NCBI GenBank assembly: GCA_973895155.1
Contig: OZ316894.1
Span: 1,814,457 to 1,878,456 of the forward strand
Direction: 5' to 3'
Origin: Marsupella aquatica
Lineage: Eukaryota > Plantae > Marchantiophyta
Length of the DNA stretch: 64,000 bases
In this document: in pieces, positions 1 through 49,902 of the stretch
Numbering within the stretch: the stretch's first letter is position 1
How the letters are laid out: every line of letters starts with the position of its first letter
Made by a program: the position numbers and the translations under genes
Notes under the pieces: generated by a model
What the model was told of the DNA's origin: nothing
The model's input: only the letters and a program-made list of their open reading frames with translations
Database searches by the model: none

Positions 1-534
1 GCTTTAACCCTGAGAATAGTACGACTAGTAGAGGTGTCCAGGGTGTCGTTAGCTTGCCGCTGCAAGTACACAAAATCTCCCACATCAAACTTCCTGACCT
101 TGGGCTGAAAAGTGCCCCCTCGTGTGTGTGCATAACGCAGTGTGTCCCTGTGCTGTGCAATGGCCAAATTCTCCATGGCCATGGGCATAACCCTCCTGAA
201 TAGGGCATCCCTCTCTGAGATCACATCAGACCAAGTCACAACTGAATCCAAGTCCACCACCTGAAGCATGTGAGCAGCATAGCAGAAGGTGGAACTGGGT
301 GACGACCAAACAACAAGACGTAGGGAGAAAAGTTAGACAGTGATGCATGTCTAGACATCCTATACCCCATGGCAATGTAGGGTAAGGCCAGGTCCCAATC
401 CTCCTTGTTTTGGTGAGGCAGATCTTCCGAAGGCCCTTCTTGCATGTCTGAACCATGCGCTCTGCCAAGCCATCTGCCTGTGGGTGATCTCGTGATGTCC
501 GACGATGATCAATGAGGGCCTGATCAAGCAGCTC
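1..534 (-). pseudogene. Integrase C-terminal continuation (frameshifted), truncated by the window edge
   Basis: HPQADGLAERMVQTCK, WDLALPYIAMGYR and SPYVLLFGRHP motifs in shifted frames. Confidence 0.85.
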
Positions 535-3042
535 CTAGAACTCTCCTCTGAACTCTGATCCCTGGTCAGTGAGACATTCTGCACAAGCTCCAAAGCGACT
601 GAGAACTTGTTGCAAGAATGCCTGGCTGGTGCTACGGGAGGTCTTATCCGGCAATGCCACAAGTTCTATCCACTTGGAGAAATGCTCTATCATGATCATG
701 ATGTAGAGATTACCCCGAGATGTGAGGGGTAATTCTCCAGCCAAATCACATGACCAACGATAAAACATGCCCTGAATAGGGAGTGGATGAAGTGTGGGTT
801 GCCGAGATGTGAAAGAAGTCCTTACCTTATCACACTGCTCACACCGGGCAATAACATCTCGAACCTGGCCATGCATGCCTCTCCAATGATAATGGGGGAC
901 CAAGAGACTATAAGTCCTCTTAACATCAAAATGACCAAGCTCAGAATGTACCTTACGGATAAGGCCAACCCTCTCATGAATGGGTGGAACCACCACTTCC
1001 CTGTCTAGTAGGCAGCGTACAAGATGATCTCCCTTCCACAAGTAGCGCTTGGACCTTTGCTGAATTCGGTCTCTTTGGGCAACAGTAACATGGGTGGGGT
1101 ACTCCCCATGCTGCAGAAATCTCAGAGTGTCGCTGTCCTCCCATATATCCACCATAGGTTGGCCAACAATGTAGCATGGCAACAAAGCAAGATAGGTAGA
1201 TGCATGAAATGTAGGCAGGATGGAAACCTGGTCAAAATCCTGCCGTGCATCTGAGGAATCATCAGAGGTAATCAAAGGGCTACGGGACATAGTGTCAGCA
1301 TTCTGATGTATCACACCAGGCCTATGAATTACCTCAAAGTCATACTCCTGGAGTATGAGCGCCCAACAAGCAAGCTTGCCAGTAAGCTTGTCATTGGTCA
1401 TCAACCACTTCAAGGGCTGGTGGTCGGTGTAGAGGACAAACCTGGTCCCATAGAGGTAGGGCCTGTAATGGATGACAACCCACACAACAGCAAGGCATTC
1501 ACCCTCATACGAAGAATAATGACTCTCTGCCTGATTGTTGCTCCTGGATGCATAGGCAATGACGTACTCTTTACCTTCCTCATCATGCTGGCCCAGAATG
1601 GCACCAATCCCAAGGGCACTCCAATCTATGTGTAGCACAAAGACCTTGCTGAAATCAGGTCTTCTCAGCACTGGGTATTCTAAGAGCTTCTCCTTCAAAG
1701 TGGCAAATGCTGCCTCAGCATCTGTACTCCATGTCCAAGTCACATTCTTTTTCAACAAAGCATACAATGGGTGTGCAATGGTGCTGAAATCTTTGATGTA
1801 GATCCGGTAGTAATTGCACAACCCAATAAAACTCCTCAAAGTGTGAACATCGGTAGGAGTGGGCATTTCCAAGATGGATACCACCTTGGCCCAATGAGCC
1901 ATGGTTCCATTTGGAAGAATGCGGTGCCCAAGGTATACTACTGATCTGACAGCAAATTCACACTTCTTGGGGTGTATCTTTAGGTTCACCTTCTTAAGCC
2001 TCATGAATAGCTCCTCAAGGTCAAGTAGATGCTGGTCAAATCCTTTGCTGTGGACCAACACATCATCAATGTAGCATTTCAGAAACTCAGCACCTTGAAG
2101 AACCTGGTCCATGACTCTTTGAAAGAATATGGGCGCATTCTTCAAGCCAAATGGCATCACCAACCACTCCCATAGTTGGTTACTGCCATGGAAAGTTGTT
2201 TTCTTGCGGTCCTTTGCAAGCAGCAAAATCTGGTTAAAGCCTTGCCTTAGATCCACAAGAGTGAAGATGTCTGAATCTCCAATGCTGTCAAATAGCTCCT
2301 CTGGCCGTGGCATGGGGTACCTGTCCTGGGGTGTGACCAGGTTCAGTGGCCTGTAGTCCCCACACATGCGCTTCTCTGTCCACAATCCACTAGAATCCTT
2401 CTTTGCTGACATCACTGTAGCTACTGCAAAATTTGATGTAGATGGCTGAATAAGACCAACTTCATAGAGCTCTTGGCACCTCTCATCCACCAGCTGCCAC
2501 TCATGCTTACTCAAACGATGTCTCCGCCTGAAGATAGGTGTTTCATCAACCAACTCAATGGAGAACTGCATGGTCTTGCACTTACCCAAGTCCTTCATAG
2601 AGAAAGCAAACATGTTCTCATGCTTGAGGAGCAAATTCAGCAGCTGGTCCTTCTGTCTTTTACTCAGGTGGTTGCCCATGATGAACGTGTAGTTGGCAAC
2701 ACTAGGAATAGGACCTGATGTACTCATGCTTGAAGAGCCAGAAGTGCTAGCCTCTCCACTGTCCAAGCTGCTAGCATGCTGCTGATAAGGTGATGAGGCC
2801 TCTCCAAGGCCTATTGTATGTGTTGCTCTGGTCTGATCCACACCATGAAACTCAGAAATAATATCAGCCACGTTACAAGGGACCTCCTCCCCCCAACACT
2901 TGGACTGAAGCGGTGAGTGTTGAATAGAGGTAAGTGCACTTGGTCTGGATGCCATGTAGCAGCACCATGGAGTGGTAGGGCTGGAACTCCTGATGCTGGA
3001 TGAATGTACATCTGAAAAAGGATGCAAGTGACCAGAAGCCAA
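535..3042 (-). CDS. Gypsy reverse transcriptase-RNase H-integrase (pol), ending at a premature stop inside the integrase core
   Basis: RMCGDYRPLN, VMPFGLKNAP, YIDDVLV, LRSFIGLCNYY, IAYASR, YTDHQPL, HSELGH...CEQC and LTDQGSEF motifs. Confidence 0.95.
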   Translation of the reverse strand: MASGHLHPFSDVHSSSIRSSSPTTPWCCYMASRPSALTSIQHSPLQSKCWGEEVPCNVADIISEFHGVDQTRATHTIGLGEASSPYQQHASSLDSGEASTSGSSSMSTSGPIPSVANYTFIMGNHLSKRQKDQLLNLLLKHENMFAFSMKDLGKCKTMQFSIELVDETPIFRRRHRLSKHEWQLVDERCQELYEVGLIQPSTSNFAVATVMSAKKDSSGLWTEKRMCGDYRPLNLVTPQDRYPMPRPEELFDSIGDSDIFTLVDLRQGFNQILLLAKDRKKTTFHGSNQLWEWLVMPFGLKNAPIFFQRVMDQVLQGAEFLKCYIDDVLVHSKGFDQHLLDLEELFMRLKKVNLKIHPKKCEFAVRSVVYLGHRILPNGTMAHWAKVVSILEMPTPTDVHTLRSFIGLCNYYRIYIKDFSTIAHPLYALLKKNVTWTWSTDAEAAFATLKEKLLEYPVLRRPDFSKVFVLHIDWSALGIGAILGQHDEEGKEYVIAYASRSNNQAESHYSSYEGECLAVVWVVIHYRPYLYGTRFVLYTDHQPLKWLMTNDKLTGKLACWALILQEYDFEVIHRPGVIHQNADTMSRSPLITSDDSSDARQDFDQVSILPTFHASTYLALLPCYIVGQPMVDIWEDSDTLRFLQHGEYPTHVTVAQRDRIQQRSKRYLWKGDHLVRCLLDREVVVPPIHERVGLIRKVHSELGHFDVKRTYSLLVPHYHWRGMHGQVRDVIARCEQCDKVRTSFTSRQPTLHPLPIQGMFYRWSCDLAGELPLTSRGNLYIMIMIEHFSKWIELVALPDKTSRSTSQAFLQQVLSRFGACAECLTDQGSEFRGEF

Positions 3043-4418
3043 GTGAGAGCATTGAGATCCATTACCCTGCCAAGTAAAGCATTCCTGGCCAACCTAGTAA
3101 TTTTGGTGGGACCTGTAGTACCGGGTTGGAAGCCCATAGCCCGTTCTCTCTCCTCAGGACTAGGTTCATCCCATGTACCGGTAGAATGTCGATAAACCAG
3201 GCCAGGACCATCACCCTGAAAAGCATGTGCACCTGGAAAGGATACAAATGTAGGCCAAGCAACACGGGGTTGTCCAATGGTATTGGCTGGATACCAAGGT
3301 GCTGGCTCTTGCCGTGTAACTGGTTGGCAAGAACTGTCAGGATCCAAAATCTGGTCCACTTTGAGGTTAGTGTCCCTGGATGTGTGGTGAAGAGCTAACT
3401 CCAACAAGGAAGGTGGTGCAAGGTTAGTCCAAAAGTTACGAAGACGATGTGCATAAGAACCACAGTGCACTGCATCAATGAGAAAGGGTGGTCCCAAGTA
3501 GTGCTGGACCACACTGAAATCCTCTTTAACTTGTGGACGCTGGTCAAACTGAGATGGAGTATTCTCAATGATATAACCAACAGCAGGATAAAGGGATTGA
3601 GCCCAGGTGAGAATCTGAACCAATGTTGTGAAAAGGCCAGAACGAGAGTCATGCAATCCAGCACCATGACCAGCAGCTGAAAACCCTTGGCATTCCCAAC
3701 CAGCTATGATCAAATCAAGGGAACCAAGAAGGGTTAAGTGTCGGTGCTGGACAAGCTGGATATTTGGAGGGAAGAAAGAAAATGCAAACTTCCATGCATT
3801 GTGTGGAAACTGCTGGGGAAATCGTTCTGAAAATTCCAGTAGACAAGATTCAGCCACTTGCCTTGCACCTGGATCAATGTCCACGTAGATGTACTGCTTC
3901 ACCACCATGCCGGACTGTAGGAGAGCTTCCAGGCCTGTAGAAATGCCACCAAAAAGCTCAAGCAATGTAAGGCCATCCGGAGTAGGAGTCCATGTAACTG
4001 GTGCGCTCAAGATTGAGGCTATTGGTTGTCCATTGTGCTGCCCAAGGTCCTCAAATTTGCGCAATGCAACCACCAAAGGTCCATGGGCTGCTTGGAGTTG
4101 ATGATCCATGTTGCTAGAAAGTGCTGCTATACGTGCAGCAGCATGTGCAGCAGCCACCTCATCATCATCCTCAATCCAATCCTGCAATGGGTGGTTGACA
4201 TAGGTAGCTGTGTGCACTGCTTTCAACACACAGTGGTGAGCCATAGGTGTATGAGCACCATGCAAATCAAGTGGAATGTAGCCCAAGTGTGAGCCATCCG
4301 TATGCCAAGCAACTCTGTAGTATGCATGCTCATGCCAGTTGTCAATGGTAAAATCTGGTGGGAACAAAGCCTCCTGGCCAATGAGCACATCATACGTAGT
4401 GCATTGGTAACCAAACAT
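2811..4418 (-). CDS. Retrotransposon-encoded C5-cytosine DNA methyltransferase (DNMT3-like catalytic domain at ~3050-3975), part of the polyprotein
   Basis: Uninterrupted 535-aa ORF with C5-MTase motifs in canonical order: I LLELFGGISTG, II YVDID, IV LIIAGWECQGFS, V DSRSGLF, VI IIENT, VIII AHRLRNFWTN, IX ERERAMGF, X LLGRVMD. Confidence 0.9.
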   Translation of the reverse strand: MFGYQCTTYDVLIGQEALFPPDFTIDNWHEHAYYRVAWHTDGSHLGYIPLDLHGAHTPMAHHCVLKAVHTATYVNHPLQDWIEDDDEVAAAHAAARIAALSSNMDHQLQAAHGPLVVALRKFEDLGQHNGQPIASILSAPVTWTPTPDGLTLLELFGGISTGLEALLQSGMVVKQYIYVDIDPGARQVAESCLLEFSERFPQQFPHNAWKFAFSFFPPNIQLVQHRHLTLLGSLDLIIAGWECQGFSAAGHGAGLHDSRSGLFTTLVQILTWAQSLYPAVGYIIENTPSQFDQRPQVKEDFSVVQHYLGPPFLIDAVHCGSYAHRLRNFWTNLAPPSLLELALHHTSRDTNLKVDQILDPDSSCQPVTRQEPAPWYPANTIGQPRVAWPTFVSFPGAHAFQGDGPGLVYRHSTGTWDEPSPEERERAMGFQPGTTGPTKITRLARNALLGRVMDLNALTWLLVTCILFQMYIHPASGVPALPLHGAATWHPDQVHLPLFNTHRFSPSVGGRRSLVTWLILFLSFMVWIRPEQHIQ

Positions 4419-5236
4419 CTGACTGGGAAATGTAGTTCTTGATCTGTAAATCCATTAAAAGTGAGAGTAAGTAAAGTAGAACTCTCACCCAGCACATCCT
4501 CCACAGTGCCACTAGCAGCCCGAATGTGCCACCTGGATTGTTGTAAATGATCAGTCATTAGTCCCATCTTCTTGGCAAACTGAATGCCCAATATCACTGG
4601 TTGAGCGCCTGTGTCTAGCATGACCACCTGAGGAGTGTGACCCTCCAACTTGACCGCTGAATTCCTGTTGTCAACAATGGCAATGGTGGTGGAAATTGAA
4701 GTCCTGTTGCTAGGTACCACTTTTGGCAAATGATGAGGTACCTTGTGAAGGGAGTTAGTGTCCACGGTCTTTCCACTCAACAGCATAGTCAGGAAAGATG
4801 GAGCAGCATGACCAGAGTCCAGTGTAGCTCTAGTCACACAATCTGTAGCAATACTGTCATCTCTACCACTGGAAATTGATACTGGGATAGCCAAACCAGT
4901 GGAAGCATGTAATGGAGAAGAAGAAGGTCCAGTATGTACATGAGATTGGACCTCCAAAACCGGTGTCACAGGGGCTGATGAAGAATGCAGTGAGCCCTCT
5001 AGCGCTCTGATGACAGCTCTAGTATCCAGTTGTAAATCATGGCAACTAAAAAGTGGAGTTGTAAGAATCCTTTGTGCCATACCGGGGGAGACAAGCTCAA
5101 GCAGCTCAGGAGAAACAACTCCCTGTGAAATGTCAGCAGCACCTGGTGGTGGAATGGATGTAGCTGCAGCTCCCTCCCCCCTCGCCAACAAGGTGCGCTC
5201 TTCAGCAAGTGTGAGTGGCTGAAAAGATTGGGGCAT
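4223..5236 (-). pseudogene. Retropepsin-type aspartic protease region of the Gypsy polyprotein
   Basis: VMLDTGAQPVILG active-site motif at ~4590-4630. The closing YDVLIG motif lies in the next frame after a 1-bp shift near 4400. Confidence 0.85.
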
Positions 5237-5286
5237 GACAGCCCGAGCTCCCCTGGCTCCTAGTCATAGGACCGGCAGCAAGACCA

Positions 5287-7059
5287 TCAGCTTGTACAAT
5301 GCGGCGTGTGGGAGCAATACGGGAGGCAGCACTGGTAAGCAAAATAGGAAGGGCAGAATGAATCTGAAAATTCTGCTGTAAGGCCAGGCTGTGTAGTAGA
5401 GGACAGCACACACTCACCCATATGAGCATCAAATGGCAAGCCATAGAAAGAGCGGGGTAGAGATGCTGAACTGTCAGTGGTGCCTGGGCTAGGGATGGGT
5501 TGCACGTGACCAGCCGGTTGAGAAGGACCAGCAGAGGCAGGTGACTTGCCTTTGATGTTGGCAAGTTGGGCACGTAGGGACTCAACCTCATGAGTCAGAG
5601 ACTGGAGTTGAGTTTCCTGGGCATTGTGAGCCTCCTTCTGAGCTGGTTGCTTCTGTTGCTGCTTGGGCAATTTGTTGGCACTGGGTGCTTTGCAACTGGA
5701 AGGAGGAGCAACTGATGCAGTAGGAGCCCTCCTAGCTGGTGGGGGAGTGGAAGTAGGAGCAGGATGAGTGGCTTGTTGTCATAGCTGCTTCCTCTCTGGA
5801 AATTTGGCAAAACAAACTGCTTCCAAGTGACCCACTTTCCCGCAAAAATCACAAGACAGATCCTCAGCAACAATATCACATTCATTAGCCTTTTGAGTGG
5901 GGTTACCACAGTAGTTGCAAGATGGCAGCATGAAAGCAGCATGTGCTGGCTTGGTCTTGGAACCATATTGTGGCACACGGGAAGGGGTGGCCAGTGTAGG
6001 GGCAGCAGCCTGATACCTGGATCGCGGTGGACGCGCAATACTGGCCTCATAATGTGCATGGGCCAACTCAAGTTTCTCAGCAGTGTCATAGACATTGAGA
6101 AATGTGTAGCTGTCTCCAAACTCTGAGAAGACTTGCCGCAACACTTGTGAATGGAGAGCTGGTGTGCCCTCCAATGCGTGAAGATAGTGATGAGCAACTT
6201 CCAGGTCAGTGATGCTCTGGGTGTCCTCCTTCAGCTTGAGAAGCCGGCGATACATCATCTTCAATGTTTCATCGCGCTGCCTCACAAAGGTGGCCAACTG
6301 CATGATTTTGTCAGCACTCTTGATTGGGAATTCCAATTCAAGAACCTGGAAAAACTCAGCCACTGGATCAGCAAAGGCAGGAGAATCAATGGTGGGAGAA
6401 ATGCCTAATGTAGCCTGTGCCAAGACAGTGGGAGTAACTGGCGCAGTGGTAGGAACTGGAGTAGGAGGGGAAGTGGCAGGAGCAGCAGCATGGGCTGCAA
6501 TGGCATTCTATAAGGCCAATTGTGAGGCTGCCGCAATTGCACTGGCATAGGTAGGGTTAGGCAACTGTGTGACAGCAAGCAGCCATTGAGAATGCTGCTC
6601 ATACACATCCAAAGCCTCATGGTGCATATACCTGGCTAGTTGCTTAAATGCAAACGCATTTGTGAAATTGCTGCCGTACTTCAACTCCAATTCATAAACG
6701 ATAGTATAGAAAGTGGATTTGAACTCACACAAAGAAACAGTGCCTGGACGCCCACTGAAGCGCTCAATGCGGCCAGATGAGTGACTAGCATCCATGCTGT
6801 ATGTCGGTGAAGCTGGAACAATCACTGATGCAGAAGGAGTAAAGGGCAGAGAAGCGATAGAAGGCTTCGGGGTAGTGGTAAAGCGACCGCCAAATGTAGC
6901 AGAAGGATTGCGTGGTGTGGGTGCTGCTGCTGTCTGCTGGCGTCGTCGAAATTGCCGAGACTCCAATGAAATTGGCACCAACGCTCGTGGATCACTCCGT
7001 AAGTGGTACCTGGGCGTTGGTGGCGATGAGCTGCTACCTCCCGGCTTGTCTGCTGACAT
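5287..7059 (-). pseudogene. Gypsy gag (capsid-like region plus zinc knuckles), frameshifted
   Basis: ORFs 6508..7113 (IERFSGRPG...FK), 5779..6423 (CNYCGNPTQKANEC and CDFCGKVGHLEAVC knuckles) and 5287..5670 (coiled coil) are in different frames. Confidence 0.8.
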
Positions 7060-7539
7060 GCTGTGTGACAATACCCAAAATGTGTAAAGACTGAGAAAAC
7101 CCATCACCGTCAAAAAACCATCGGGGAAAAAGGACCCTTAAAACCTCAAATTGTGTTCCCGTTGCGCTTGCCTATGTGTATACATAGGCGATGTGGGATT
7201 GCCGTCCCATGTGTATACCCCGGGCCCGCAGCCTGATGCAGATGACCGTCGGCAGTAGCAAAGAAATCCGCAAAGAAATGGCCCAAAAAAACCAAAAAAA
7301 TGTGAAAGGGGGGGCCCTTAAGTGTATACGTCGGCCCCGGCGTGGACCCAGAAACTGACGGAAGGCGCGCGTCGACCGGAAAGAAAAATAAGGTGGGGAC
7401 CGGCAACCGAGCAAGTGTGTATACACACTCGGGGCACCGTGCGCTATGCTGCAGACGAATAAATGCGAAAGCGAGGCGAGGCAAAAAAGAAAAGGGTGAG
7501 GCGAGGAAAAGAAACGGCCCCTAATGGGCTCGAGCCCTG

Positions 7540-7935
7540 CATAGGCTTCGCGCCCCCTCTCCTTATGCTCCCGAAGAGGTGGGGGCTATGAGCTCCCCCT
7601 CCCCTCTTAAACGCGCTGTGGGCCTCGTGCCTGGCTCGAATGTACTCCCTAGGTTCCGTTTAATGCAGCATAGGGCCTCGTGCCCTCTCCTTGCGCCCCT
7701 GCTTTGACTCCCCCTCCCCCTGATTTAAATCCCTCATAGGGCCTTATGCCCCTGGCAGAAACTCCCAAGGAGGGAGTCGTATGTACTCCCGAGAAGGGAG
7801 TCGACTTAACTCCCCTCCCCCTCCTTAATTCCTCATAGGGCTTCGTGCCCTCCTTCCGCTTCCCCCCTCCCCTTGCGCTTGGTGCTCGGCTCTCCCCCTC
7901 CTCTTTAATCCAGCATTGGGCCTCGTGCTCCCTCC
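7540..7935. repeat. About six degenerate copies of a ~19-nt hairpin motif (consensus CATAGGGCCTCGTGCCCTC) in the GC-rich leader/LTR region of the Gypsy element
   Basis: Copies start near 7541, 7618, 7669, 7735, 7835 and 7915. The best copies form an AGGGC/GCCCT stem with a 5-nt loop. Confidence 0.7.
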
Positions 7936-10739
7936 TCTCCTCGCGCTGCCAGCCCCTATTGAGTGCAGGGGACGATGCCCTATGCACGGACAGCCAGGAG
8001 GCGAAGGAAGGAAAATGGCCGGAAAGGGGAAAAACATCGAGGTGAGACCACAGCGCAGCGGAAATGGTGAGAAAAATGGGTCTGCGGCCCTATGCAGGTC
8101 GCATTGCAGTGGCAAGGCCGGCTCACCGGCAGCCGTGGCCGGGGAATACGAAAAACGGGCCCGAAATTAAAGAAATGGCGATGGCGCAGTGGCGGCAGGT
8201 CGCGGCAGTAGGTCGCAAAGCAGGTTGTGGTTGGAACGAAAAACCTGGGTCCCCACGGGAGTGTTATGTGTATACACTTAAAGTATACACATAACACCAC
8301 ACTAAACCCATAGCTTTGAAACCGTCGTTCCAATGTCTGTCGAGGAAATTGCAACGGCTTCACCAAAAATTGTCGAAATTGTCACGAGCAATCTTCTTCC
8401 CTTCACCGCTAATTCGACAGTTCTTCTTGAATAAAAGGCGTGGTAGAAACAAGTGTACTGAAATCAAATCGAAAACCGGCGGGATGCCAAGATCTGCCGG
8501 GAGCATCTAATGAATCACTGTGTGAATCCCGTGTACGGAACCGACGAGCACTGTCTGAGCTCTGTCGACAGCGATTCAAGAAGAACTGAAAAAACCCACA
8601 AAGAAAGACATGCCCTAAGTAAACAAAGTCCTGACGTCACACTAACAAGCGCGTTTGCTTCAAGAACGCCTGGCATTTGCTATAAGAACATGTCACTAAC
8701 TCAAGTAGTACACTAGCCCTAACTACATACCTAGCGGGCATGCAAGGGACATGCCGATGTGCATAAGAGGCACTGTCCCTCGGCATGACAATAACACTAA
8801 TTAATGTGAACAGTGTAGATCCCTGGCCCACATATCTAAAACCAACTACAGTAGACCTCCCAATATGCCCCCCTAGGTAGCCTTGAAATAGTCATATTAT
8901 TTTGGCTAAAAAATGTTTCATTATAATAGAATTGCATTCAAGATACAATATACCACCACAGCTCACACTTGATGATAATACAGGTTAGGCTCTTTTGTAG
9001 AGAGAACTCAGTTTTTTAACTTCTACAATATAATATCTATTAAAAGTCACAAGCATATATTGCAGGGTTTGTTACAACCTTGTTCAAATTACCTAGGTCT
9101 CAGTTACCTTGCATCCCATTGTGGGCTCTGCTAGCAAAGTTTTAAAGGCCAATCTGCACACCAAAAAATTGATTGTAGAAGTGTGTTGGCACAATAGGAG
9201 AAAACAATCAAATATTTGAAGTTTAACTAGCCTAGACAGCTTCTCCGCACCTGATTCTCCGTGGAATTCTATGTACAACAGGAACCACAACATATGTAAC
9301 AAGCACCAGACAAGCCTGTATTGCATACAAGCTCATCATCACAAAGGACTAACAATCACTTGCAGCTTCAGCCCTCTAGAGACTTTCTCTTTTGCGAACT
9401 TCCTTGACATTCTATTGACAGTGATCAATGGAATGTCAACCTGGGTCTGAGTTTGTAGACCTCCAAACTCATTTCCCCACTCTGCATACTGCAGGGCTTA
9501 CACAACCATATCAAAGTGGGTCTTTGCAGATCTTCAAATTCCTTAAACACTTTGCTTCCTTGAATGTGCTGAAACGCTTACACAACCTACAAATCCGGTC
9601 TTGTTTCGTGACTTCTCAAGGTAACACCATAAATTGATTTCAATCAACACCAACCCTTTCTTAATCAGGCTGATCTCGATGGACCATATCACATATTAAT
9701 GCCAATTATATCAACTTGGAAAATCCAAGAATTCAACCCCAACAAGCATTTGTAGACCTGTTGTCCCATCTGTCATGCATCATGTGTGGCAGTTGGACAC
9801 TTTGTGTGTTAGCCTTTGTGTGTAGCCTCCAGTTCTGCCCCAACTACCTCTATATGGTGGTCTTTCTGCCTCTGGGACTGTCTCCCTCTCCTCACGAGGA
9901 GGAATGCAGTGGGGATGCTGATGCAGGAATGACATCCTCCCTTGAGACTGGGTCAGAGATTTGGGCATATAATAATGTAGCTCCCACTAGTTCCAGGGGT
10001 GGTTTCACCATCCATATTGTCCTACACATCAACCAGGGCATCCACTTGACATCACACCAAACTTGGTGCCTTTCTCCTTAACTTTCCATGGTGAATTCCA
10101 CCATAGCTTATCCTTATAAGATGTTGATCGAAGGATTCATTATTTTACATTCAATTGTTGCACTTTGAATAGGCCAATGAACTTAAATCCCTCCTTTAAA
10201 TGCAAGATGACATTTGCAGCAGTCTCAATCAGTGTGTAAACTACTTGATCTATTGCCTTTTCAATCCCGTTTTCCCAAGGGTGATTAGTCATCCATAATT
10301 ATGCTTTTGTGCTTTTTTATGGCTCTTTCCAACTTAGTTGCACCCGTCATTCATTTTGCCAGATCCCTTGCAGCCAACCTGTTAAGAGAGATACCGCATG
10401 CTGTTTTAGCTTTGCTCATTACCAAAGCATACCTCCTATGGACAAAAAATGTTCATAAGCATCTAACCCGGTCAAATGCAGTAGCACTGGTTAATTAGGC
10501 ATTTACTCTTAGGTCTAACTAAGGCTATACTCAAATGCAGTAGCACTGGTTAATTAAGCATTTACTCTTAGGTCTAAGTTTATCATGTAACTTACAGTAG
10601 TTAGTCTAACAGTAGTCAAGTTGGAAAGACAACACAAAGGTTACTATGGCGGTGAAATGGCATGTTCAGTTTGGTCATTATCTTGAGAGGTTTCATTTGG
10701 CTTCGATGGTTGAGTTCCTTTGAAACGATGATGTGCATT

Positions 10740-11108
10740 GATCCTGGTGAATAGTTGTTCCTGTGAATGACTGAGGATTCGATGAGGATTGTGGAGCTAA
10801 GTTTGTGCTGGCTATCGAGACTTTTGCCCATCTGAATGATGAAGTAGCTGTGGTTTGATCGAGGTTTATTGATCGATGCGTCTTCCAGCGATCGAACAAC
10901 AGCGATATTTCAAGCAGATCCTGGTGCTGATCCTGGTGAATAGTTGTTCCTGTGAATGACTGAGGATTCGATGACGATTGTGGAGCTAAGTTTGTGTTGG
11001 ATATCGAGACTCTTGCCAATCTGATGAAGTAGTTGTGGTTTGATCGAGGTTTATTGATCGATGCGTCTTCCAGCGATCGAACAAAAGCGATATTTCGAGC
11101 AGATCCTG
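10740..11108 (+). repeat. Tandem duplication (~189-bp unit x2) directly upstream of the kinase start
   Basis: GATCCTGGTGAATAGTTGTTCCTGTGAATGACTGAGG begins at 10740 and again at 10929, with near-identical continuation. Confidence 0.9.
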
Positions 11109-14100
11109 ATGAATCGTTGGATTATGAAGAGGCCGGAAGACATGCTAGCCAATTCGCAGTCTAGCCCGGTCGACAAGATTTCGAGCCTGCTACAATTCGC
11201 CAGTGTGGGAACAGTACATTGTGTGAGGAAAATCCTGGACGAAGGTCTGGATGTGGACTCCTCGGATTACGATGGACGCACAGCGCTGCATCTCGCAGCC
11301 AGTGAGGGCAACCTTGGAGTAGTAGAGTTGCTATTGGAGCGAAACGCTAAGGTCAATCCAGTCGATCGGTGGGGGGAAACGGTGAGCCGCAGTTCAATCT
11401 GCATACTTGGATAGCGTTTTCCCTCAGATTGCCTATATGCTCAAATAAGTATTCATGAGATTATGTTTCGTGCAACCTTTTGGTTACGATCGATCTGGAT
11501 GTGTAGCCCTGGGTGAATGCGGAGCGGTACGTGAAAGGGGACGACAATAAACGACTTGAATATAAGAAAGTTTCGGAACTTCTCGTCGCATGGCGCGAAG
11601 AGGTATGGCTCAAGAGTTTTCATGGCTTGTCTCTACGCCAACGTTTTCGCCTTGTGAAAGACCAAATTATCTTCAGAACTTATGACCACACTCTACGTGA
11701 ATGCCGGCCTTTAGGGAACAAACCAAGTCGAACAAGACCAGGCGGAGGAACTGGAGCAGCTAGAACTGCTAGAGCAGCTGAAGGAAGATTATGAGATCGA
11801 CATCGAAGAGCTTAACTTGCAGGAAGCCCCAATCATTGGCGTGGTGAGTTGATCGAAGTTGGCTTCTTACTTAAATACAAGCTGTCGATATATCTGATTC
11901 AAAGATCCACAGGTTTCAAACAGGTTTGAGCTCTGGATTTGCTGGACGTACATCTATACTCGCCGGAACTTGCTCGAGCAGTAGGGCTGAAGGGATTGAT
12001 TCGTTGTGAGGATTGCACGAGCTTAATGATTTGTTTACGAGACTGCTGCCGGCTCTAGTCGGAAATGAGATGTAACCTCTAAAGCATATACGTTAGCGCC
12101 TGTTACTTGTCTGCCCGCAGGGTTCCTACGGACAAGTGAAGTTGGCGAATTGGAGGGGAACGAAGGTTGCAGCGAAAACCATTTTGGAGAATCTTGCAAA
12201 GAGAGAAGAAATTAAGTCAGTCATAAATTCATCTCAAATTAATTAAGTCCCGTCCTTCGAGTTTTGAGTGACTGACAATATTGGTCTGTGGCCCCACTTG
12301 ATACTTGCTTCTGTCTAGTTCTCGGAAGTTGACTGAAAAGTTAACTAATCTGTTCATTATCTCTGCAATGCTGGCTAACTGAAGAAGTAATATGTACTGG
12401 ATTCCTGGAAACCAGAAAGGAGTTCCGTATGGAGCTCTTGTTACTGCAAAGTCTCCGACACCCAAATATTGTTGAGTTCCTTGGAGCTGTTACGAAGAAT
12501 AACGACCTCGTCATTGTTACGGAGTATCTTCCCAAGGTACAGTACTGCAATTTGCATACTAATCTCTAGCTTTCTGACTGATTCTTCATGAGTCGAATGT
12601 GCAGACAGAGATCGAGTGATTAAGCTCATTGTCGGCAAGCTAGTTCAAGACAGATTGTACATAGTAACTTCCATTTTTGCGAGCACTGATAACCCGTACC
12701 CCAGTAGTATGGGAATTGCATGTTGGAAACAAAAAAGTAATCCTTGCTATGAGCAGGGAGACTTACATGACATTATCGACAGAAGGGGTCGAATCCCAGC
12801 AAGAGATGCGGTGAACTATGCCCTCGATATTTCTCGGTAAGAGCTTTGAACAGCTTTTAACAAAAGTTCCAGCTTACGATTCTTCCGTAGTGATGTATAT
12901 TTAAATCGTGTTACTTATCGACTAAAGGTCGATTTTCTCATGATCTTCAAAGCTCCTATTGAGCTGTAGCGCAATTCCGAACGTGATACAAAGATCAGAT
13001 CTGCGCATTTTTATTTTTCAGTGCTCACGAGTCACGAATTTTTTTTTCGTATTGGAAATAATTTAGGGGCATGAATTACCTGCACGAGCATAAACCGAAA
13101 GCTATCGTCCATCGTGATTTGAAACCGAGGTATGTACCTCCAAACCTGATGGATGAGGCCTCGGAATCCATAAGCAGTTGTTCGATATGTCTGAGTGCAT
13201 TGAAATGTTTCTTTTTGTTGATTCGGATTCGTACTTGACAAACAGACGAGTTGCATTATGACGTAGTTGAGATGGCTCCGTCCCTTACTTAGCAACATTT
13301 TTGCAATGTGCTGTCCTCGCTGATCCTTAGAAACCCGCCAATTAGTCCAAAGGTTCTCGGACTAGGACTGCATCGTCTGTGGTTACAGCCTGCGAGAAAT
13401 CATAGTCCAAAGATTTGGAAGACCGGCGTCTCGGGTATACTTGGCATTCCATATTGGCTTCAGATTAATTCATAGCTTGCAAGCTATTGTTCGATTTTGG
13501 AGGTTCTCATTATAGCGATGTTCCGTCAGGAACTTGCTGCAGGATGAAGCGGGCCATTTGAAGGTCGCGGACTTCGGGTTGTCGAAGTTGATGATGCCAA
13601 AAGCAAACTCTGCATATGAAATGACAGGGGGGACAGGAACTTGTAAGTCTACCATGGCACAACTGGCTAGTCCTTGGCCAAGGTACTGTTAAAGCAAAGT
13701 GTCAAGATAATTAAATGATGGGATACCGTCCGATGTTAATTTCGACTTCAAAAATTCTGCGGCTCCAGATGTTCTGGTTTGTCAAACAGAATTGAGAAGC
13801 TGCGAAAAGGACGCTCGCACGGACCAATTCCATTTGCCAACCTTGGTTGAATTGTGATCATGGAAAATTTGCATATCTTTTGTGGAAATTATGAGAGGTC
13901 TGTCACTTGGATGACTGTACATCCAGGATTGTGTTAACATCTTGTATGGAAGTGGAGACATCTAAACATCTGCATATAAATGTTCAATGTCGAAGGGATA
14001 TTGAATTATTAAGAGGCAACAGACGTGCAGGCCGCCATAACGAATATTTTCCTGGATTGCAGATCGGTACATGGCTCCTGAAGTTTTCTTACATAAAACT

Positions 14101-16771
14101 TACGACAAAAGTGTTGACGTCTTCTCTTTTGCAATTATCGTTACAGAGGTACTGATCCTGCTGGACCCAATCATTCTTTTGTCAGTTGGAACGTCAGTAT
14201 AATTGCACATAGTGAGTCAGATTTGAGAACATTTGTTCCTTGACCCAACTTATATTTTCGGAATTCGTGGTTTGAAGATGTTTGAAGGTGGACCTGCACT
14301 TCTAAGTAGTACCGGCCATGAAGTCGCACGAAAACGAGCTCATAAAGATAGACGGCCAGAGTTTCGAATGAAGACTTATCCGTCCGGAATGAAAGAGTAA
14401 GTTTCTATCCTAAGATCGATCATTCGTTGTCCTGTTCGGGTCGTATTATAGTTTAACATGTCTATTTGACAACTTTGAATCCATGTAGCCTTTTCCTGTA
14501 GCAATTATCTCATTCTACCTTGAACAACTTGGATTCCCTGAAGTTGGTCTGGCGGAGACTACAACTCGTTCTGCACATTGGTGTCGTCGAATGGGCCCCC
14601 GGCCTTTTTGAAGCGCAAACTTGTTTTACGACTTGCTTAGTGTTCATATTAATGTCGCATAGGCCGGAAACAAAGTACTAGCTGCGAGATGTAAAATTCT
14701 CAGTCCTGAATTGTAAATTTAATTTGGAGCGTAACTAGCGTTCATTGCTCTTGAGTATATCTATATTAACGAACGTGACATGAGTGGCTTGGACCTATCC
14801 TTCGAACAATCAAGGAGTATATTTTGTCATCTATGGGTTTTAATTCTTGTGAGATAGATGACGATGAAAGCGAGGGAATCCTAATGGCTGGTTTGCTTAT
14901 CTTCTGGACTGCCTCTTCCGGATTCCAAGGTATGGCCCACCGGTGAATTTACAAACGGTACTACTTAGGAAATCCGTAGGACGTCCGCCGGGATCACTAA
15001 GGATTTGGTAGATTCGTTGGAAAGTACTTAACGTCCATCATGATGAGCACTATCGACTTGGATCCTGCTGATGGGGACTTCTGGCATTGCGTCATGTATC
15101 TTCCTGCCACGGGCGGCGCGGGCTGTCAGAAATGCTCACTTCGATCTCGGCGATGTGGCATGAGCAAGAAATTGTTTTCAGAACAATCTTCCTCGTTTCG
15201 TTCGACCTATAAGTTTCTTCTTCATGATGGAACCATGCCGCCGGACTTCTCGGACGTACACGAGATATGGAGGTTTCCATTAGAAAGAGTTCAACAGGAA
15301 GAGCCAAACACACTGTTCGCCTGAACATCGGTGGGTCCGTCTTTCCTGATCGATCCGTGTCTGATTAGTTTCCAGGGCAAGAGAATATGTTTACCACGTA
15401 AAGTTTGTGTCCTTTGCGCCGTCTATTGCCCTTCCTACTTCGGTAGTTGAGGACCAAGGTAGTCCATGGTCTCCGAATTTTTCTTTGACGGTAGGCTGTC
15501 TTTTAGGTGAGATAATGCATTTGCTTTGCAGGCGGCTGCGGCCTCCGGCAACGACGTCACTGCTTTTCAGCGCCGAGGACGTCACCTTGAATAATGCTTC
15601 GATCAAAGTCTATCTTGCAGCGCTGGATTTGGCTCCTCGCTCAGGTGTTTCTTCTGCTCTCTGCTGGGCTGTCCCAGTCTCAGACATCGGTGCTCAACTT
15701 ATCTGCCCAGTGAAATCAAGACGATCAAGTAGAGCTCGGAAAATTCCCCGGCATCATGGATCGATCACTCGGCCTCGATCGCCTCCATCTTACCGTGAAC
15801 GATATGTGTTGACCTCATATATTATCAAACCCATACCATTGTTGGAGCGCCATCAATCAGACCCGGTCAAGTTGGGCAAGTCCAACCGGTCGGCCATCCC
15901 AATCAGATATTATCTTTAAGAAGTGCTCATGACGAAAGAGAAGTTTCAAAATACATCAGACCTTAAGAAAATAATTCTTTATTTAAGTACTTTTCCCTCA
16001 CAGCTGTACTCGTCAAACCTTAGTAGATCATCCATGTGGTTAATCGTTTTCTTGCTTGGGAGTAACAATAGTGCTGAGAGTTGAAGTGACTTGCTCAGAG
16101 GGATCAGTTCGAAAAAATGTAGAGTAGTTGCTATCAGACATCAAAAGGTCTCTTGGGTCACCCCTAATTCTAAGCAATCATGCACGTCGTCGATCAAGAG
16201 AATCAAAATCTCAGCATTCTACAGTAGTCAAATTATACAGCTCCCTTTTGTTCGCCTTCATGACTTGCATACATTGTAACGGAGGAGGTGCATAATGGGC
16301 AGCAATGTCTCTTTCTTGGAATTCGTGTGTGCGTGCAGACTTTTGACCGAATGCTGGGACAAGGATCCCGCGGTCAGACCGACGTTTGAGTACATCATCC
16401 GCAAACTGGAGCAGATGCTCGATGACCTGGAGGGTGCTCGCTGGCAGGCAAGGCCGATGATCACGGGCGCAATCGACAACATCTCCAATAAATGGAGAGA
16501 TTTCCAGCACAGAGTTCAGCACGCTAGATTGGCTGAGTCGGGATCCAACCTGCTTTCCATAAATCAAGGAATGTCGGTTAGACTCGTAGAACAGTCTCGG
16601 AGGGGGAAATCTGTGTCGATTGTGTCTCGCAGAGACTCCCGCAGGGGCAGTGGAAGTCGGAGGGAAGGGTTATACCCGTGGCTTTCGACTGACGAGGATG
16701 GCAGCGTCTCGTCCTTCAGTATGTCCAACGACGACAGCTTCTTCGGCAGCATTCGCGGTCGTCCTTCATAG
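11109..16771 (+). CDS. Ankyrin-repeat Raf-like protein kinase (integrin-linked kinase / VIK-like), multi-exon
   Basis: Exon 1 has DYDGRTALHLAASEG and DRWG ankyrin motifs. Later exons give GSYGQV..WRGTKVAAK (~12121), LRHPNIVEFLGAV (~12450), HRDLKP (~13110), VADFGLSK (~13565), RYMAPEVF..YDKSVDVFSF (~14065) and CWDKDPAVRPTF (~16350). GT-AG introns. Start codon approximate. Confidence 0.9.
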
Positions 16772-17627: not shown

Positions 17628-20600
17628 TTATGACTTCACGACCTGAAACCCCCTTCGAACTCTCTTGGACATATCAAAGGGCACATTGAGGATTCTCTGT
17701 ACTCTCTCAGCCTCGTTCACAACACTTTGGACAAGTGCCTCGTCTTTCTTGGCCATTCGAGTGAGTGCTCCATATGCTTCAGTTAACCTACTCACTACAA
17801 GCGAGACGTTTCCTTGCAAAGAAACCGCCACAGTGAAGGCGAGTCCCAAAACATCAGTTCTTGTAGCATCTCCATTGTGAATCTGGTCTTGCACAGCGTC
17901 AGATTCCGTTAGTAGCATATCCCTGCGTTATCATAGTAGAAGCAATAAATTAATAAAGCGTCCTAAAGATCAGATTTCCTCCTAATACATGCTTTGGTAA
18001 CTAATAGCCAATTCTCTAGAGCATCAATCCTCCAAAATGTAATTATTCCTTCTGGAAGGGAGTACCTGTAAGCAAGAGCCGCTTCCTGCACCCTCTTGCC
18101 CTGAGGAAGAGTAGGATCAAAGCCGGGACCAAATTTACCTGATATCCTTTCAATTATACTCGGAGGAGCTGAATCAGTATGCAGATTCACCTGGAAGATG
18201 GATTCATGCATGTCTTAAGTTTGCCGGACACGAAAACCCTGAATTATATATTGCAATTTATCTTCCGACCCCCTTGACTCCTATCAGAGTCCAAGTCCAC
18301 TTAAGAGGTATTAGAGCAAAGTCAGGACTTACCACCACAGTGCCATGGTTGGCATTTAAAAGAGAGCTAAGACTGCTTAGAAAAGGGCCACTTCTGTCCC
18401 ATAATTTCAACGGCACTACATCTTCTCCGTCATACGCGTCCACAAAGACCAAATCATAGTCCAACTTGGCTTTCTCTGCCCAGACATTTCGTGCTTGTTC
18501 ACGTACAAAAGCTTCGCCATCTTTCTCATGCAAAATGATCCTCTCTAGCACACCACCCCAAATTTTTGCTTGGTCCTTTGTAGCCGCACCATGTGGTGGT
18601 GGAAATCCCATTGTCTTAACTGCTGCTAAAATGACAGTTGCGTCGATCTCGACAACTTCAACAATAGCTCCTGTTTTACACCACAGCGGCTGCACACATT
18701 TAAATCCCTGAAGTTTACTGTCCATGAGGAGAAATTAAGCAGTGTCTACCCTAATTTGTTTTCTTTGTGTACATGTTTGTTTTTGTTTTTGCTTTTGCTT
18801 TTCGTTTATTTCGGTTTTCTCAGTTGTTGTTTGTGTTTTTCATTAGTCACTGATGAGGCCAGCTTCATGTATAAAACTTAGATACCATTCCTTGTAAGGC
18901 ACGCTCTTCCTCTGTAAATCTAGGACGACTCAGTGTTGATTACACTATCAAGCATCGTGCAGAGCATATCTGAACACAAACCCATAGGTTGAACATAAAT
19001 AACAATTTATTGCAACCTACCTGGCAAATTGTGGGCAAGGAAAAGAGGAAGGCTCCCCCCACCCAAGCCAATACAAAGAATACGCATCTTCTCATATCCA
19101 TTGCGCACACGTTGCAAATCAAGGCCTGATAAACTCACAGCAGATAGACCAGCTGATATCATGCTCTTCACGTCTGGGTCACAGTCGTTATGTAAACACA
19201 ATAGAGGTCAGTAGAAGAACGAACGCAATTGTCAGTTACCCAACATTCTAAACTGCCATGATCTTGTTCACATAATGTTTTGAGAACAAATAAATTTACT
19301 TGAAGGTGGTCAATCTCTCGAAAGGAAATATACTGTTGGTTCTACTATCAAAGATTGGCCCTGCAAAATTGATGATGTTGACATGCATGCATCGGTGCTA
19401 ACCCTTCGCTAAATTGAAGTTCAAGATAGAGGGAAGCCTCCCCAGTAAGAAAGTTTTGCGGGTTCAGATCACAGGCGTAGTGGCAGAAAAACTCCCTACC
19501 AGGTAAGAGGCAAGGGCTCAAATCCCTCTTATTGCCTACAAGTCCCTAGGGAGTGATACCCGTTGTGTCCCACCTTGTCATGGTCAGTCTAGAGAGAGTG
19601 AACCTCACCTAGTGTCCTTATCCTTGCAAATAATAAGGTGCTGCGCACAAGATTCAGTGTGTTCAAATAAAAAGCGAAGGATGATGAGGACGATTACCCC
19701 AACAATGCCCTCACACGGTTGAGGCCTTTACCTTAAAATACACATTCCCTCATAACGAGCTTCTAAATGCAGGTAGGTGGTAGCATGATAGGTCAGAAGA
19801 AAGTCGAGAATTTTTTGTGAACCAAGCTGGCTCACGCATAATAATGAAGTAGGTGTGTACTAAATGGGGCAAATTACAACGTAGCCATGGAATCAATTTA
19901 ATCCCACGTACATTCAAAAGCGATGCAGTTGGGTTGCTGGAGCAGGATGACATCTCCCACACCTGTAGCAAGAGCTTTAACTTTTGCTACACTTTGCCTT
20001 GTGACCCAGTTAAATCGCAAAACACGCCACTCGAACCCTAGTACCTCCTGCAGGGGTTGCTTCAGAGCTGCTTGCAGATTATTTGAATTCTGATGGTACC
20101 TGCCCAGTGATGTCAGTAAGCTCCCTCATGGCAAAAGCCAAAAGAAGATTCCACAAGTTGACAGCCCACTATAAAAGCTCCAAAGAAGTCAAATTGATCG
20201 TAAAATAAAAACTTTCAGCAATTTCACAAAGTGGGGGCAATTCATAACAACAGAGCTGGCAGACAACTTTACAAATTTCATTCTGGAACCTTCATATTCG
20301 CTAATGACTGTTGAAGAGATGAAGAAACGCTAGATGCCCAAATAGAAGCGAAGAGGAAGTCTGGAAAGAGGCAATCAAGCTGCCTCCATTTCATGTGAGG
20401 ATCAACACTTACGTGTATAGAAGCAGGATGCGATGTGACCGACACAACTCCGTTTCCCATAACAGAGGGAGCTTCAAATACAGTCTCGCCGTGATTGTGT
20501 CCCCAACCACCACCCTGTGTTCCCCACCATTCTGGGGAATATCGCCAATCTCCCTCGTCCACCTGCTTTTCTCGTATCACATCCCGAGAGAATCTCCTGA

Positions 20601-21320
20601 AGCCTGGCAAATTAAAGTAAGACGGTAATAAATAATTTTTATCTCAGCCTCAGCTTAAGGAGAACTGGCTGATGAGGCGGACCGGAACGGCTTCAAGAAA
20701 GAAATTCAGAGTCTTTGCGGATCCTCTGCCAAAACTAAGGTTAGGATGTAGACCAAAACAATGGTTAGGATGTAGACCAAAACAATCACAGTAATTTCAT
20801 TCTTAGTAATAGTGAGCACACCTTGTTCACTGGAACCCACTTGGGCATCTCCCCCTCGACCACTTGAAGCTCCAAGGCAATTGAGTAGCTTCGTTCGGGC
20901 ATTGCTGATTTCCGAGTGCCGCAGAAATTCAAATGGAACGGTACTGTGCAACCACCATCCGGAATACGACTGTCTGCTGCCTTTGACAAGCCGCCCACGA
21001 CCTCCAAATATATCCTGTAAAGTCAGCTGTACTCCACCTCCATCTGCACGAGCTCTTCGGTGAAACCTCAGACATAACCACAAGCTCGAAGGTAGCCTCA
21101 TCGATTCAACTCTACCAAGAACATCGAGCAGTTGGCAAGCTCCCAGTCCTCCTCTTCTTGAGAGCCTCCCGGATTGGAGAAGAGGGAAGGAACAGGGAGA
21201 ACAAACTCCACATTGTATGGAGCTGCAGCCAAACCAATTCGACAAGAGGGGAGCACTACTTAGAGCCGAAGGTAAAAGAGGGCTTCCAGATGCAGCGACA
21301 GAGAGGAAAGACATACCCAA
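17628..21320 (-). CDS. SAM-dependent methyltransferase superfamily protein (spermidine-synthase-like fold), probable plastid transit peptide, multi-exon
   Basis: Ser/Leu-rich N-terminus, then DWRYSPEWWGTQGGGWG, ILCIGLGGGSLPLFL (SAM-binding), VEVVEID, DLVFVDAYDG and VNLH motifs in successive exons. Confidence 0.82.
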
Positions 21321-27800: not shown

Positions 27801-27960
27801 GAAACATAACATCTTTTCCCTTAACAACATCTTAATTGCACACCATGACACTTTTTTTCTGAGAAACATCTTGGGCGCCATGACATCTCTTTTCTTAACA
27901 ACATCTTGGGTGTCACAACATCTTTCTTTTAATGACATCTTGGGCAACACAACATCTTTT
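24830..27960 (+). repeat. Degenerate ~18-19-bp minisatellite (CTCACCTYGACATCTTTT-like) in several blocks; a related block lies at ~38650-39000
   Basis: Dozens of GACATCTTTT/CAACATCTTT units, clearest at 25850-26155. They produce repetitive low-complexity ORFs (LDIF/HLNIF). Confidence 0.85.
26507..26753 (-). mobile_element. MITE (~250 bp) of the same family as 53557-53884, in opposite orientation, nested in the Helitron
   Basis: Termini TTGGGGGGGGTCAC ... GTGACCCCCCCCCTAG. Flanks GACACACG / GACACACA give an 8-bp TSD with one CpG-type mismatch. The interior matches the reverse complement of the 53557 copy. Confidence 0.85.
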
Positions 27961-28955
27961 GTGCAATGCATAGGTGCTGAGCTAGTTCTGGTATTAATCC
28001 TTGTGAGCCTTATAGTTTTCTTTCTTGAACCACTACTCCTAACTGTTCATAATATTCTAATGCCATTAAAGGCTGCTTACAGGTGGAACCAAACCAAACC
28101 ACTCTTAAAATGGAGACAGAGTCAGACATGTAAGGATTGGAGCATCATTAGGGGATCCAGCCAATCTTTGTAGCATTGCCAGATATATATTCCTGAAATT
28201 GGGAGGCTGTTTATTAGAGCCAGTCTGACTAGTAATGATAATTGTGTAATCACGGCTGGCCATGGCTTAAATTGGACGGCTTGAATCCAAGTGTCTCTGC
28301 TTCCCCCCCTCCCCCCCCCCCCTCCCTCTCACGGACGTGAGCCTCATAATCTAGTATCCAGTAATAAGTTTTTTTTCTGTTGGACTGTTTTGCGTGCAAA
28401 GGTTTGTAAAGCTAAAAAGGTGCTTACAACACCCAGACAACAGAGCACCTATTACAAATTTCAATTAGGCCGTTAAGAGTTCAAAATAGAAATAGTTGCA
28501 GAATTTTCTCTTTATCATTAGGGGTATTTTAAAGGTCAGGAGGATTGCACATGGATCAAAAGATCCGTTAACGAACTCCACAAGCCAAGTACAAAAGGAG
28601 ATTCAATGTTCATGCATGCGGCTTATCCATATGATTGTCGCTGGGCTACTTCAAGTGGATATCATACGATAATTTTCTAGCATTTTCTTTCATAGATTTT
28701 AGTGTTCATCTCATGAGCTTTGGTTACTGCTCCTTTTCTTTTCATCTATTTTTGTCTCGCTTTGGCTTCTTTTAGTCCTCGTTTCAATCCGTTAGAAATG
28801 TGTCAAACTCTCAATCTCGTTTTAGAAAGACAGAAAATAAACACAACATTACAAAGCACCTTTCCTACCTATAACAAACATGATATGTATTTGAGTCTCA
28901 ATCTAAAGCCGAATGCTGAGGATATCAATGTCTGGTTTAGATAAGTGGAACAATA

Positions 28956-49776: not shown

Positions 49777-49902
49777 AATGTATTTAGGGTTTTGAGTGAT
49801 TTTACAATATTTTTTGGAGGAGAGTCCAGATTTTGAAACATGATTGTAACATGGGGAACTTAACAATTTCTAACTTTATTTGAATACAGATAGTCCGCTA
49901 TC

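Follow-up and report, generated by a model that had tools for sequence, protein, structure and literature searches.

A decayed Ty3/Gypsy retrotransposon copy in the liverwort Marsupella aquatica carries a DNMT3-type enzyme that likely methylates CG in the element's own new cDNA

Introduction

Among the retrotransposons with a cytosine methyltransferase that are known from algae, KnitGypsy-Dnmt3, a Gypsy element of Klebsormidium nitens with a DNMT3 (de Mendoza et al., 2018; PMC5890265), is the closest described system to the locus reported here, a Ty3/Gypsy element on the minus strand of a stretch of 64,000 nucleotides of contig OZ316894.1 from the liverwort Marsupella aquatica, to which we refer as the window. 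KnitGypsy-Dnmt3 contains an intronless DNMT3-type domain in its Gypsy polyprotein, with conserved catalytic residues and a Ka/Ks ratio under 0.2, and its repeats are organized as A-coding-B-A-B (PMC5890265, legend of Fig. 4c), while neither a target duplication nor a junction sequence is given for it, and no integration model offered, in the openly available text of that study. In Symbiodinium, SymbioDIRS-Dnmt3 and SymbioLINE-Dnmt similarly hold a retroelement C5 methyltransferase in or beside Pol, the former with split repeats and enzymes that catalyze de novo CG methylation in yeast, the latter with a depletion of CpG (PMC5890265). Where these elements have a tyrosine recombinase or endonuclease, the family of the window has an rve integrase, with 4-bp target duplications. 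For DIRS elements, de Mendoza et al. have proposed a methylation of cDNA, and the Discussion of the same article treats the role of retrotransposon DNMTs as an open question (PMC5890265). The EpiLTRs of Cymbomonas and Euglena are long terminal repeat (LTR) retrotransposons that also combine a cytosine methyltransferase with a chromatin-reading domain, but their enzyme is related to DNMT4 and accompanied by an adenine methylase and a chromodomain (bioRxiv 10.64898/2026.05.21.726589). The same preprint sets 'streptophyte Gypsy-DNMT3' apart as an earlier case. 'Streptophytes' are also mentioned, with reference to the 2018 work, in a paper of 2025 and a preprint of 2026.

Land plants that do not flower encode DNMT3 proteins of their own, of which PpDNMT3a/b share the unrearranged DNMT3-type catalytic domain but contain a DUF3444 and are stand-alone genes (PMC6453930). 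With respect to transposons, a 2019 review holds that methylase-encoding elements do not occur in land plants like the tracheophytes and bases an argument on this loss (PMC6338049). No land-plant copy is named in the openly available text of PMC5890265, the supplement of which may list bryophyte copies and includes a table that counts DNA_methylase genes, 9 for Physcomitrella and 33 for Klebsormidium. The words 'methylase' and 'PHD' are absent from the available descriptions of the REXdb Gypsy clades Chlamyvir, Tcn1, Phygy and Selgy (PMC6317226). Beyond the papers cited here, searches of the open-access literature retrieved no report of the family from a bryophyte or other land plant, nor of split-repeat Gypsy integration, although supplements may list bryophyte copies.

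Results

The open reading frames of the window include a minus-strand stop-to-stop frame of 547 codons (4454-2811), in which a sequence-only reading had recognized a C5-cytosine methyltransferase with motifs I, II, IV, V, VI, VIII, IX and X between the protease (PR) and the reverse transcriptase (RT) of a Gypsy element, and to which it had assigned the span 2811..4418. Identity and location of this domain have both held up, with all of these motifs present in an alignment of relatives and a match of the frame to PF00145 above the curated cut-off of Pfam (26.1 bits vs 22, E 7e-6). The span had to be narrowed: the frame is stop-free, but the enzyme itself extends only from about 3992 to 3000, the region 4400-3993 being a linker and the last ~25 codons, up to 2811, an out-of-frame run-on. 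The 24 sequence matches to solved structures are without exception DNMT3A, DNMT3B or DNMT3C (best E 8e-6), and an AlphaFold model of 3992-3000, obtained with an input alignment of 16 homologues, has a pLDDT of 91.5 and a pTM of 0.91. With this model, the Foldseek matches listed are DNMT3 alone (best 6e-17), and VIA-align, run against 48,161 chains, places DNMT3B at the top (Z 28.1, rmsd 2.5, 269 aligned residues) and DNMT3A (Z 27.4) likewise above bacterial enzymes, DNMT2, DNMT1, DNMT5, CMT and MET1 (M.MpeI 24.4, M.HhaI 22.5, DNMT1 19.5, ZMET2 18.0, MET1 17.7). A search of the ESM Atlas returned generic methylase clusters only. Pfam detects no DUF3444 in the frames of the window, and the domain is flanked by protease and RT instead of forming a stand-alone gene as in host plants. 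The domain of the window is a DNMT3-type cytosine methyltransferase.

Across 125 near-complete domains, whose clades are only 30-45% identical to each other, the catalytic and S-adenosylmethionine (SAM)-binding positions are nonetheless nearly invariant, with the catalytic cysteine being kept in 123 sequences (the other two have gaps), the glutamate of motif VI in all of them and each arginine of motif VIII in 121. The enzyme would quite probably be an active DNA methyltransferase. Several observations weigh against such activity. Motif IV of the window copy reads W-E-C in place of the P-C found in most C5 methyltransferases, a glutamate preceding the catalytic cysteine in the window lineage and in 85 of the 125 domains altogether (a proline in 37), and its motif III contains an asparagine where 111 of 125 relatives have an aspartate. 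In addition, the Klebsormidium Gypsy enzyme produced no methylation in yeast, a result that its authors call inconclusive and that was shared by DNMT3B (PMC5890265). The lack of activity in yeast and the replacement of P-C would both be compatible with a domain that was retained for binding DNA or flipping bases and that transfers few or no methyl groups; it might for example bind the cDNA junction, hide CG sites or protect them against host enzymes. We consider this improbable in view of the near-invariance of catalytic and SAM-binding positions between such distant clades, and because W-E-C and W-P-C alternate over the DNMT tree, as fits a tolerated position.

The domain is embedded in an element whose parts are listed in Table 1 and which has the Pfam set and order of Ty3/Gypsy elements, with protease, RT, RNase H (RH) and rve integrase (IN). 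No tyrosine recombinase, as found in DIRS, PAT or Ngaro elements, was matched in the frames or relatives scanned. The window copy is dead, since it contains in-frame stops in gag (6508, 5779) and integrase (535) and its reading frame is broken near 5330 and 5260 in gag, near 4400 and 2890 on either side of the methyltransferase and near 407 and 278 in the integrase. The breaks at ~4400 and at the G-run at ~2890 had been noted from the sequence alone as single-base shifts that divide what was probably one ancestral gag-PR-DNMT-RT-RH-IN polyprotein. Alignment to relatives confirms that they are real, and contigs of sister copies identify them as damage. At 4400, contigs of four public runs are one base longer than the window, accounting for 66-100% of the summed depth. 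At the G-run, the raw share with the extra base is 0-28%, a low value because many short contigs terminate inside the run, and the contigs listed that bridge it show a one-base gap vs the window. Of 27 related loci, 15 have this tract in frame, six have it one base shorter and six one base longer, some of these loci being the same insertion in different samples. A programmed frameshift at the G-run, to which the six shorter tracts might point, is ruled out by the six longer ones, the 15 in frame and the bridging contigs, which are in frame; both shifts are copy damage or slippage. The ancestral polyprotein itself is encountered among relatives, which we designate by P numbers: P0092, P0119, P0120 and P0124 are unbroken PR-DNMT-RT-RH-IN polyproteins of 2318-2374 amino acids, and the close relatives P0086, P0197 and P0003 read through individual frame junctions.

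Table 1. Features of the methyltransferase-bearing Gypsy element in the window.
Feature	Position	Strand	Basis or remark
5' terminal repeat A1	8460..8790	-	TGTCATG start at 8790 as in L011, L016, L021, L029; inner end approximate
5' leader, GC-rich, differs between copies	7060..8459	-	low depth, contig skips
gag, double Cys/His knuckle region	5253..7059	-	59% identity to P0086 residues 1-475
Aspartic protease	4430..4654	-	PF13975 28.7 bits, cut-off 28.2
Frame break, protease/linker, this copy only	4398..4402	-	contigs one base longer; relatives in frame
Linker, protease to methyltransferase	3993..4397	-	without a Pfam match above cut-off; close relatives 50-59% identical
DNMT3-type C5-cytosine methyltransferase domain	3000..3992	-	331 amino acids, stop-free; Pfam, structure matches, model
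Catalytic Cys	3692-3690	-	domain alignment
Motif VI Glu	3566	-	domain alignment
Motif VIII Arg pair	3446 and 3440	-	domain alignment
G-run frame break, methyltransferase/RT; slippage hot spot	2885..2893	-	bridging contigs and related loci
Reverse transcriptase core	1918..2379	-	PF00078 98.5 bits
RNase H	1342..1731	-	PF17917 124.5 bits, PF17919 108.1 bits
Integrase (zinc-binding, rve core, C-terminal part), runs past window edge	1..984	-	PF17921, PF00665; alignment to P0092

In this family, which is of high copy number, the domain is fixed and under purifying selection. Runs X1, X2 and X4 have similar summed contig depths, which are not copy numbers, from gag across DNMT and RT to integrase, and X5 is uneven; the values for DNMT vs RT are 63k-162k vs 102k-182k in X1 and 9.6k-11.2k vs 5.9k-14.9k in X4, where the depth of the element amounts to hundreds of times that of the flank contig (depth 28). 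Two protein searches retrieved 85 and 104 relatives, and the 168 proteins with a DNMT match comprise 44 with a PR-DNMT or DNMT-RT order, 91 with an RH-DNMT-integrase order and 33 that are too short to be assigned an order. The domain was also located in 39 metagenome loci (L numbers), which reach up to 84-93% identity to named Sphagnum proteins and are thus referred to as Sphagnum-like; RT follows downstream in 33 of them, the contig ends in three, two have an internal deletion and one a different order. Ratios of nonsynonymous to synonymous substitution rates (dN/dS) between the window and 18 related loci, roughly one per insertion, are 0.08-0.19 for the DNMT in all 18 cases, under the value of 0.2 that characterizes Gypsy-Dnmt3 elements, compared to 0.16-0.30 in the linker, and the ratios of RT and RNase H do not exceed 0.10, with dS being near saturation (1.3-4.8 or saturated). 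The frame breaks on both sides of the domain could have been the trace of a single event, in which a fragment of a host DNMT3 or a nested element had been inserted into an ordinary Gypsy copy between protease and RT. Such a one-off insertion is practically ruled out, as sister copies and relatives retain the frame across both breaks, contig depth is even, the order recurs in the 44 proteins and in the related loci, and the domain lacks introns and the DUF3444 that host plant DNMT3s carry (PMC6453930).

We are highly confident that the family of the window is a member of the Gypsy-Dnmt3 kind. It shares with KnitGypsy-Dnmt3 the organization of repeats, which on our side is found in Sphagnum-like relatives, and the PHD finger that follows the integrase in close relatives of the window may be common to both. 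The K. nitens protein P0274, which we infer from its name and domain order to be one of the copies of PMC5890265, has the same order of protease followed by DNMT and is 37% identical to the window domain. Differences concern the host, which in case of the window is an embryophyte, the very high copy number and motif IV, which reads W-E-C in the window and F-P-C in P0274.

DNMT trees, which contained no host DNMT3 as outgroup or donor candidate, separate the PR-DNMT elements from the RH-DNMT-IN elements. This split received a Shimodaira-Hasegawa (SH) support of 0.998 in a first tree of 86 of the 125 domains, for which every second unnamed RH-DNMT-IN row was dropped, and an ultrafast bootstrap (UFBoot) of 100 in a second tree of 42 chosen sequences and 331 columns. 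The PR-DNMT clade (UFBoot 100) unites the window with sequences from Calypogeia, Marchantia, Sphagnum, Closterium and Klebsormidium nitens (KFL_013780020, P0274). In a tree of 40 RTs, the RH-DNMT-IN type forms a group (0.955) and the PR-DNMT type is not one clade. Named proteins of the kind come from Calypogeia, Marchantia, Riccia and Sphagnum, and no tracheophyte names are among the named matches. The assignment of the host to land plants, already made by the sequence-only reading, agrees with a neighbouring gene of seven exons (17631-21209, minus strand), which is 75% identical to its homologue in Calypogeia fissa (579 columns), 57-59% to those of Marchantia and Riccia and 53% to that of Ceratodon, a comparison of one gene with five named homologues that makes a leafy liverwort the likely host. 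The Riccia homologue is named SAM-dependent methyltransferase.

Whether the lineage persisted in or was transferred to land plants had initially been left as two options. The sequences favour descent, with PR-DNMT elements presumably being old streptophyte residents, because dS to Sphagnum-like copies is saturated and the clade contains two land-plant lineages, each with liverwort and Sphagnum sequences. A horizontal transfer from an alga to bryophytes, or between co-growing mosses and liverworts, could account for the 85% identity between the RTs of the window and P0003, a Sphagnum-like protein, at only 53% identity of the host gene between window and moss, and the deep nodes within the PR-DNMT clade are weak (24-64), which weighs against the preference for descent and leaves room for a transfer in its topology. 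The dS to Sphagnum-like loci, at 1.5-4.7 or saturated, the two shared lineages and the low identity of the nearest named algal domains (30-38%) count against a recent transfer only, and an old one appears rather unlikely.

The second of these lineages has a W-P-C motif and includes P0090, P0207, P0208, P0214 and P0215 of Marchantia polymorpha, P0024 of Calypogeia and the P0088 cluster. Its gag-PR-DNMT frames of 1278-1335 amino acids all end 124-142 residues past motif IX, ahead of RT, which in the gene model P0115 is located just downstream, and at least five open genes of this type, with ~1280 amino acids, are found in Marchantia polymorpha. The shared stop or shift would possibly yield DNMT at the levels of Gag.

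In the 91 proteins on the other side of the split (P0096-P0178 and many of P0271-P0392), the order is RT-RH-DNMT-integrase-PHD, and the named ones are from chlorophytes (Monoraphidium, Haematococcus, Chromochloris). At 50% identity, 613 clusters reach an E under 1e-30, and the arrangement of the group was not found in the literature searched.

At the 5' end of the window copy, A1 is flanked by the four bases TTAT, a predicted target duplication. A single-depth flank contig stops at 8764, and contig depth climbs inside 8401-8790. The length of A in the window (~320 bp) is borrowed from relatives, the second copy of A lying outside. Within the leader, contig depth is low at 7201-8400 and skips are numerous, the largest of note extending from 7189 to 8281. 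A nested insertion at 7190-8280, suggested by low depth and skip, is a less likely explanation than a variable leader, as relatives likewise have ~1 kb from A1 to gag. Palindromic motifs of the TGTATACA type recur at 7170-8297 together with purine-rich sub-repeats, and a 37-bp palindrome occupies 8261-8297. No tRNA primer site was seen after A1 by eye, without a formal test. A PHD finger, a purine tract and B1-A2-B2 are predicted to lie within ~1 kb past base 1.

The organization of both ends is apparent in four complete Sphagnum-like elements (L011, L016, L021, L029), where A1 (~320 bp), starting with TGTCATG, is followed by the leader, the coding region with PHD, a G run, B1 (~150-180 bp), A2 and a B2 that ends with CA, thus conforming to A-coding-B-A-B. 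A1 and A2 as well as B1 and B2 are 80-89% alike, a purine tract immediately precedes B1, and target duplications of 4 bp are exact in three of the four elements, the fourth showing a single mismatch. The sequence GACA-GT-TGTC, or a deaminated variant, forms the joint between B1 and A2 (CA-NN-TG), and the joint between A2 and B2 is AT-rich and of variable length. An ordinary two-LTR structure was dropped, since shared sequence continued beyond the 3' repeat. In the regions of L021 at 14783 and L025 at 14953, B2 ends at an earlier CACGACA sub-repeat, with the duplication being intact in L021, and the right end of the element seems to be set by a cut at alternative sites. Circle junctions resembling the CA-NN-TG joint are used by DDE transposases of the IS3 family. 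With plus-strand priming at the G-run, B+A would be the true repeat unit, two such ends could be joined to a circle, and its opening at the internal B/A joint would leave A-coding-B-A-B. On these grounds we regard integration by way of a circle as an evenly balanced proposition, against which it has to be held that only A1 of the window copy, with TGTCATG at 8790, lies in the window and its 3' end outside, so that the model rests on relatives of ~69% nucleotide identity, and that 3-4 of 12 examined 3' regions have no clear B pair (8 of 12 have it).

All three coding parts of the element share a CpG observed/expected ratio of 0.26, compared to 0.71 in a Copia element, 0.63 in a leucine-rich repeat (LRR) kinase, 0.45 in a DNA transposon and 0.52 in the window as a whole. 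At silent CpG (codon positions 3-1), the values are 0.08-0.20 in the element vs 0.59-0.71 in controls, and CHG in the element is not depleted. Among 21 listed sites at which the window copy has lost a C or G, a small and selected sample, nine are in CHG (background 15%) and four in CG context (background 37%). As recent losses lean to CHG and not to CG, CpG was likely scarce in the family before this insertion. The controls are mixed: one Copia is the sole retroelement control in the window, the CpG ratio of 13 Sphagnum-like loci (0.31-0.38) is no lower than that of their flanks (0.17-0.51), and silent CpG in relatives (0.23-0.50) spans the value of a Gypsy RT fragment without DNMT (0.41). The depletion may thus stem from host methylation or from selection against CpG, and with controls that disagree we do not accept it as proof of self-methylation.

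An active enzyme could also find its useful substrate in host DNA, if it were brought to the target with the integrase and the PHD finger and methylated the insertion site or other chromatin. The PHD finger located after the integrase in 25 family loci and in most RH-DNMT-IN relatives would suit this, as would the Sphagnum-like loci, in which the depletion of CpG is not specific to the element. Conversely, the full-length PR-DNMT polyproteins P0092, P0119 and P0120 keep the enzyme without a PHD match, and the pronounced loss of silent CpG from the window element fits a repeated methylation of the element itself. Host DNA as the main target is therefore unlikely in our judgement.

The remainder of the window contains an LRR receptor-like kinase (28956-33070, minus strand) with a frame of 1177 codons and a second exon, recognized by eye from the translation, and exons at 11058-16771 (plus strand) of what we take to be an ankyrin-repeat protein kinase. 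Decayed transposase-like frames (49894-53584, plus strand), for which CACTA-like is a guess, are adjoined by tandem repeats with units of 73 bp (49373-49810) and 65 bp (47639-47910), and long frames of 353, 450, 184 and 255 amino acids (41887-47143, minus strand) might belong to a large DNA transposon as accessory genes. The Copia-type element that served as CpG control consists of RT and integrase-side frames with one stop (61676-63724, minus strand). Degenerate pyrimidine-rich tandem arrays with units of 18-19 bp are found at 24841-27976 and 38812-39003.

Discussion

In our analysis, the window contains a dead copy of a Ty3/Gypsy family with a DNMT3-type enzyme between protease and RT, which likely methylates CG on its own new cDNA. 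In the proposed mechanism, a gag-PR-DNMT-RT-RH-IN-PHD polyprotein would be produced and cleaved by the protease, and the methyltransferase would be enclosed in the particle alongside RT and integrase, where new cDNA would be its nearest substrate. We lean slightly towards this cDNA as the main substrate and CG as the methylated context. The product of reverse transcription would bear B+A repeats at both ends and close into a circle, which the DDE integrase might open at the internal CA-NN-TG junction for an insertion with a 4-bp duplication. CG methylation of the new DNA could make the insertion resemble resident chromatin or escape host sensing, with a long-term loss of CpG as its price.

A wider and distinctly tentative extension of this proposal would describe an ancient green-plant Gypsy that is alive in liverworts and mosses, whose circle is pre-methylated by its own DNMT3 and opened by the DDE integrase at CA-NN-TG. 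In its Marchantia branch, the enzyme would be produced together with Gag, upstream of a conserved stop, and might be abundant enough to methylate the host genome, and a chlorophyte sister group would have the enzyme elsewhere in Pol.

The kind is known from algae; what is new are the bryophyte host range and a high-copy family in a liverwort. Its abundance in a liverwort and its presence in named bryophyte proteins contrast with the statement that methylase-encoding transposons do not occur in land plants like the tracheophytes (PMC6338049). The structure of its ends suggests integration from a circle by an integrase of the retroviral type. Since gag-PR-DNMT loci are annotated as hypothetical host genes, they may confuse counts of plant methyltransferases. 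Marchantia polymorpha, as a genetic model with open frames, makes the function of these enzymes directly testable.

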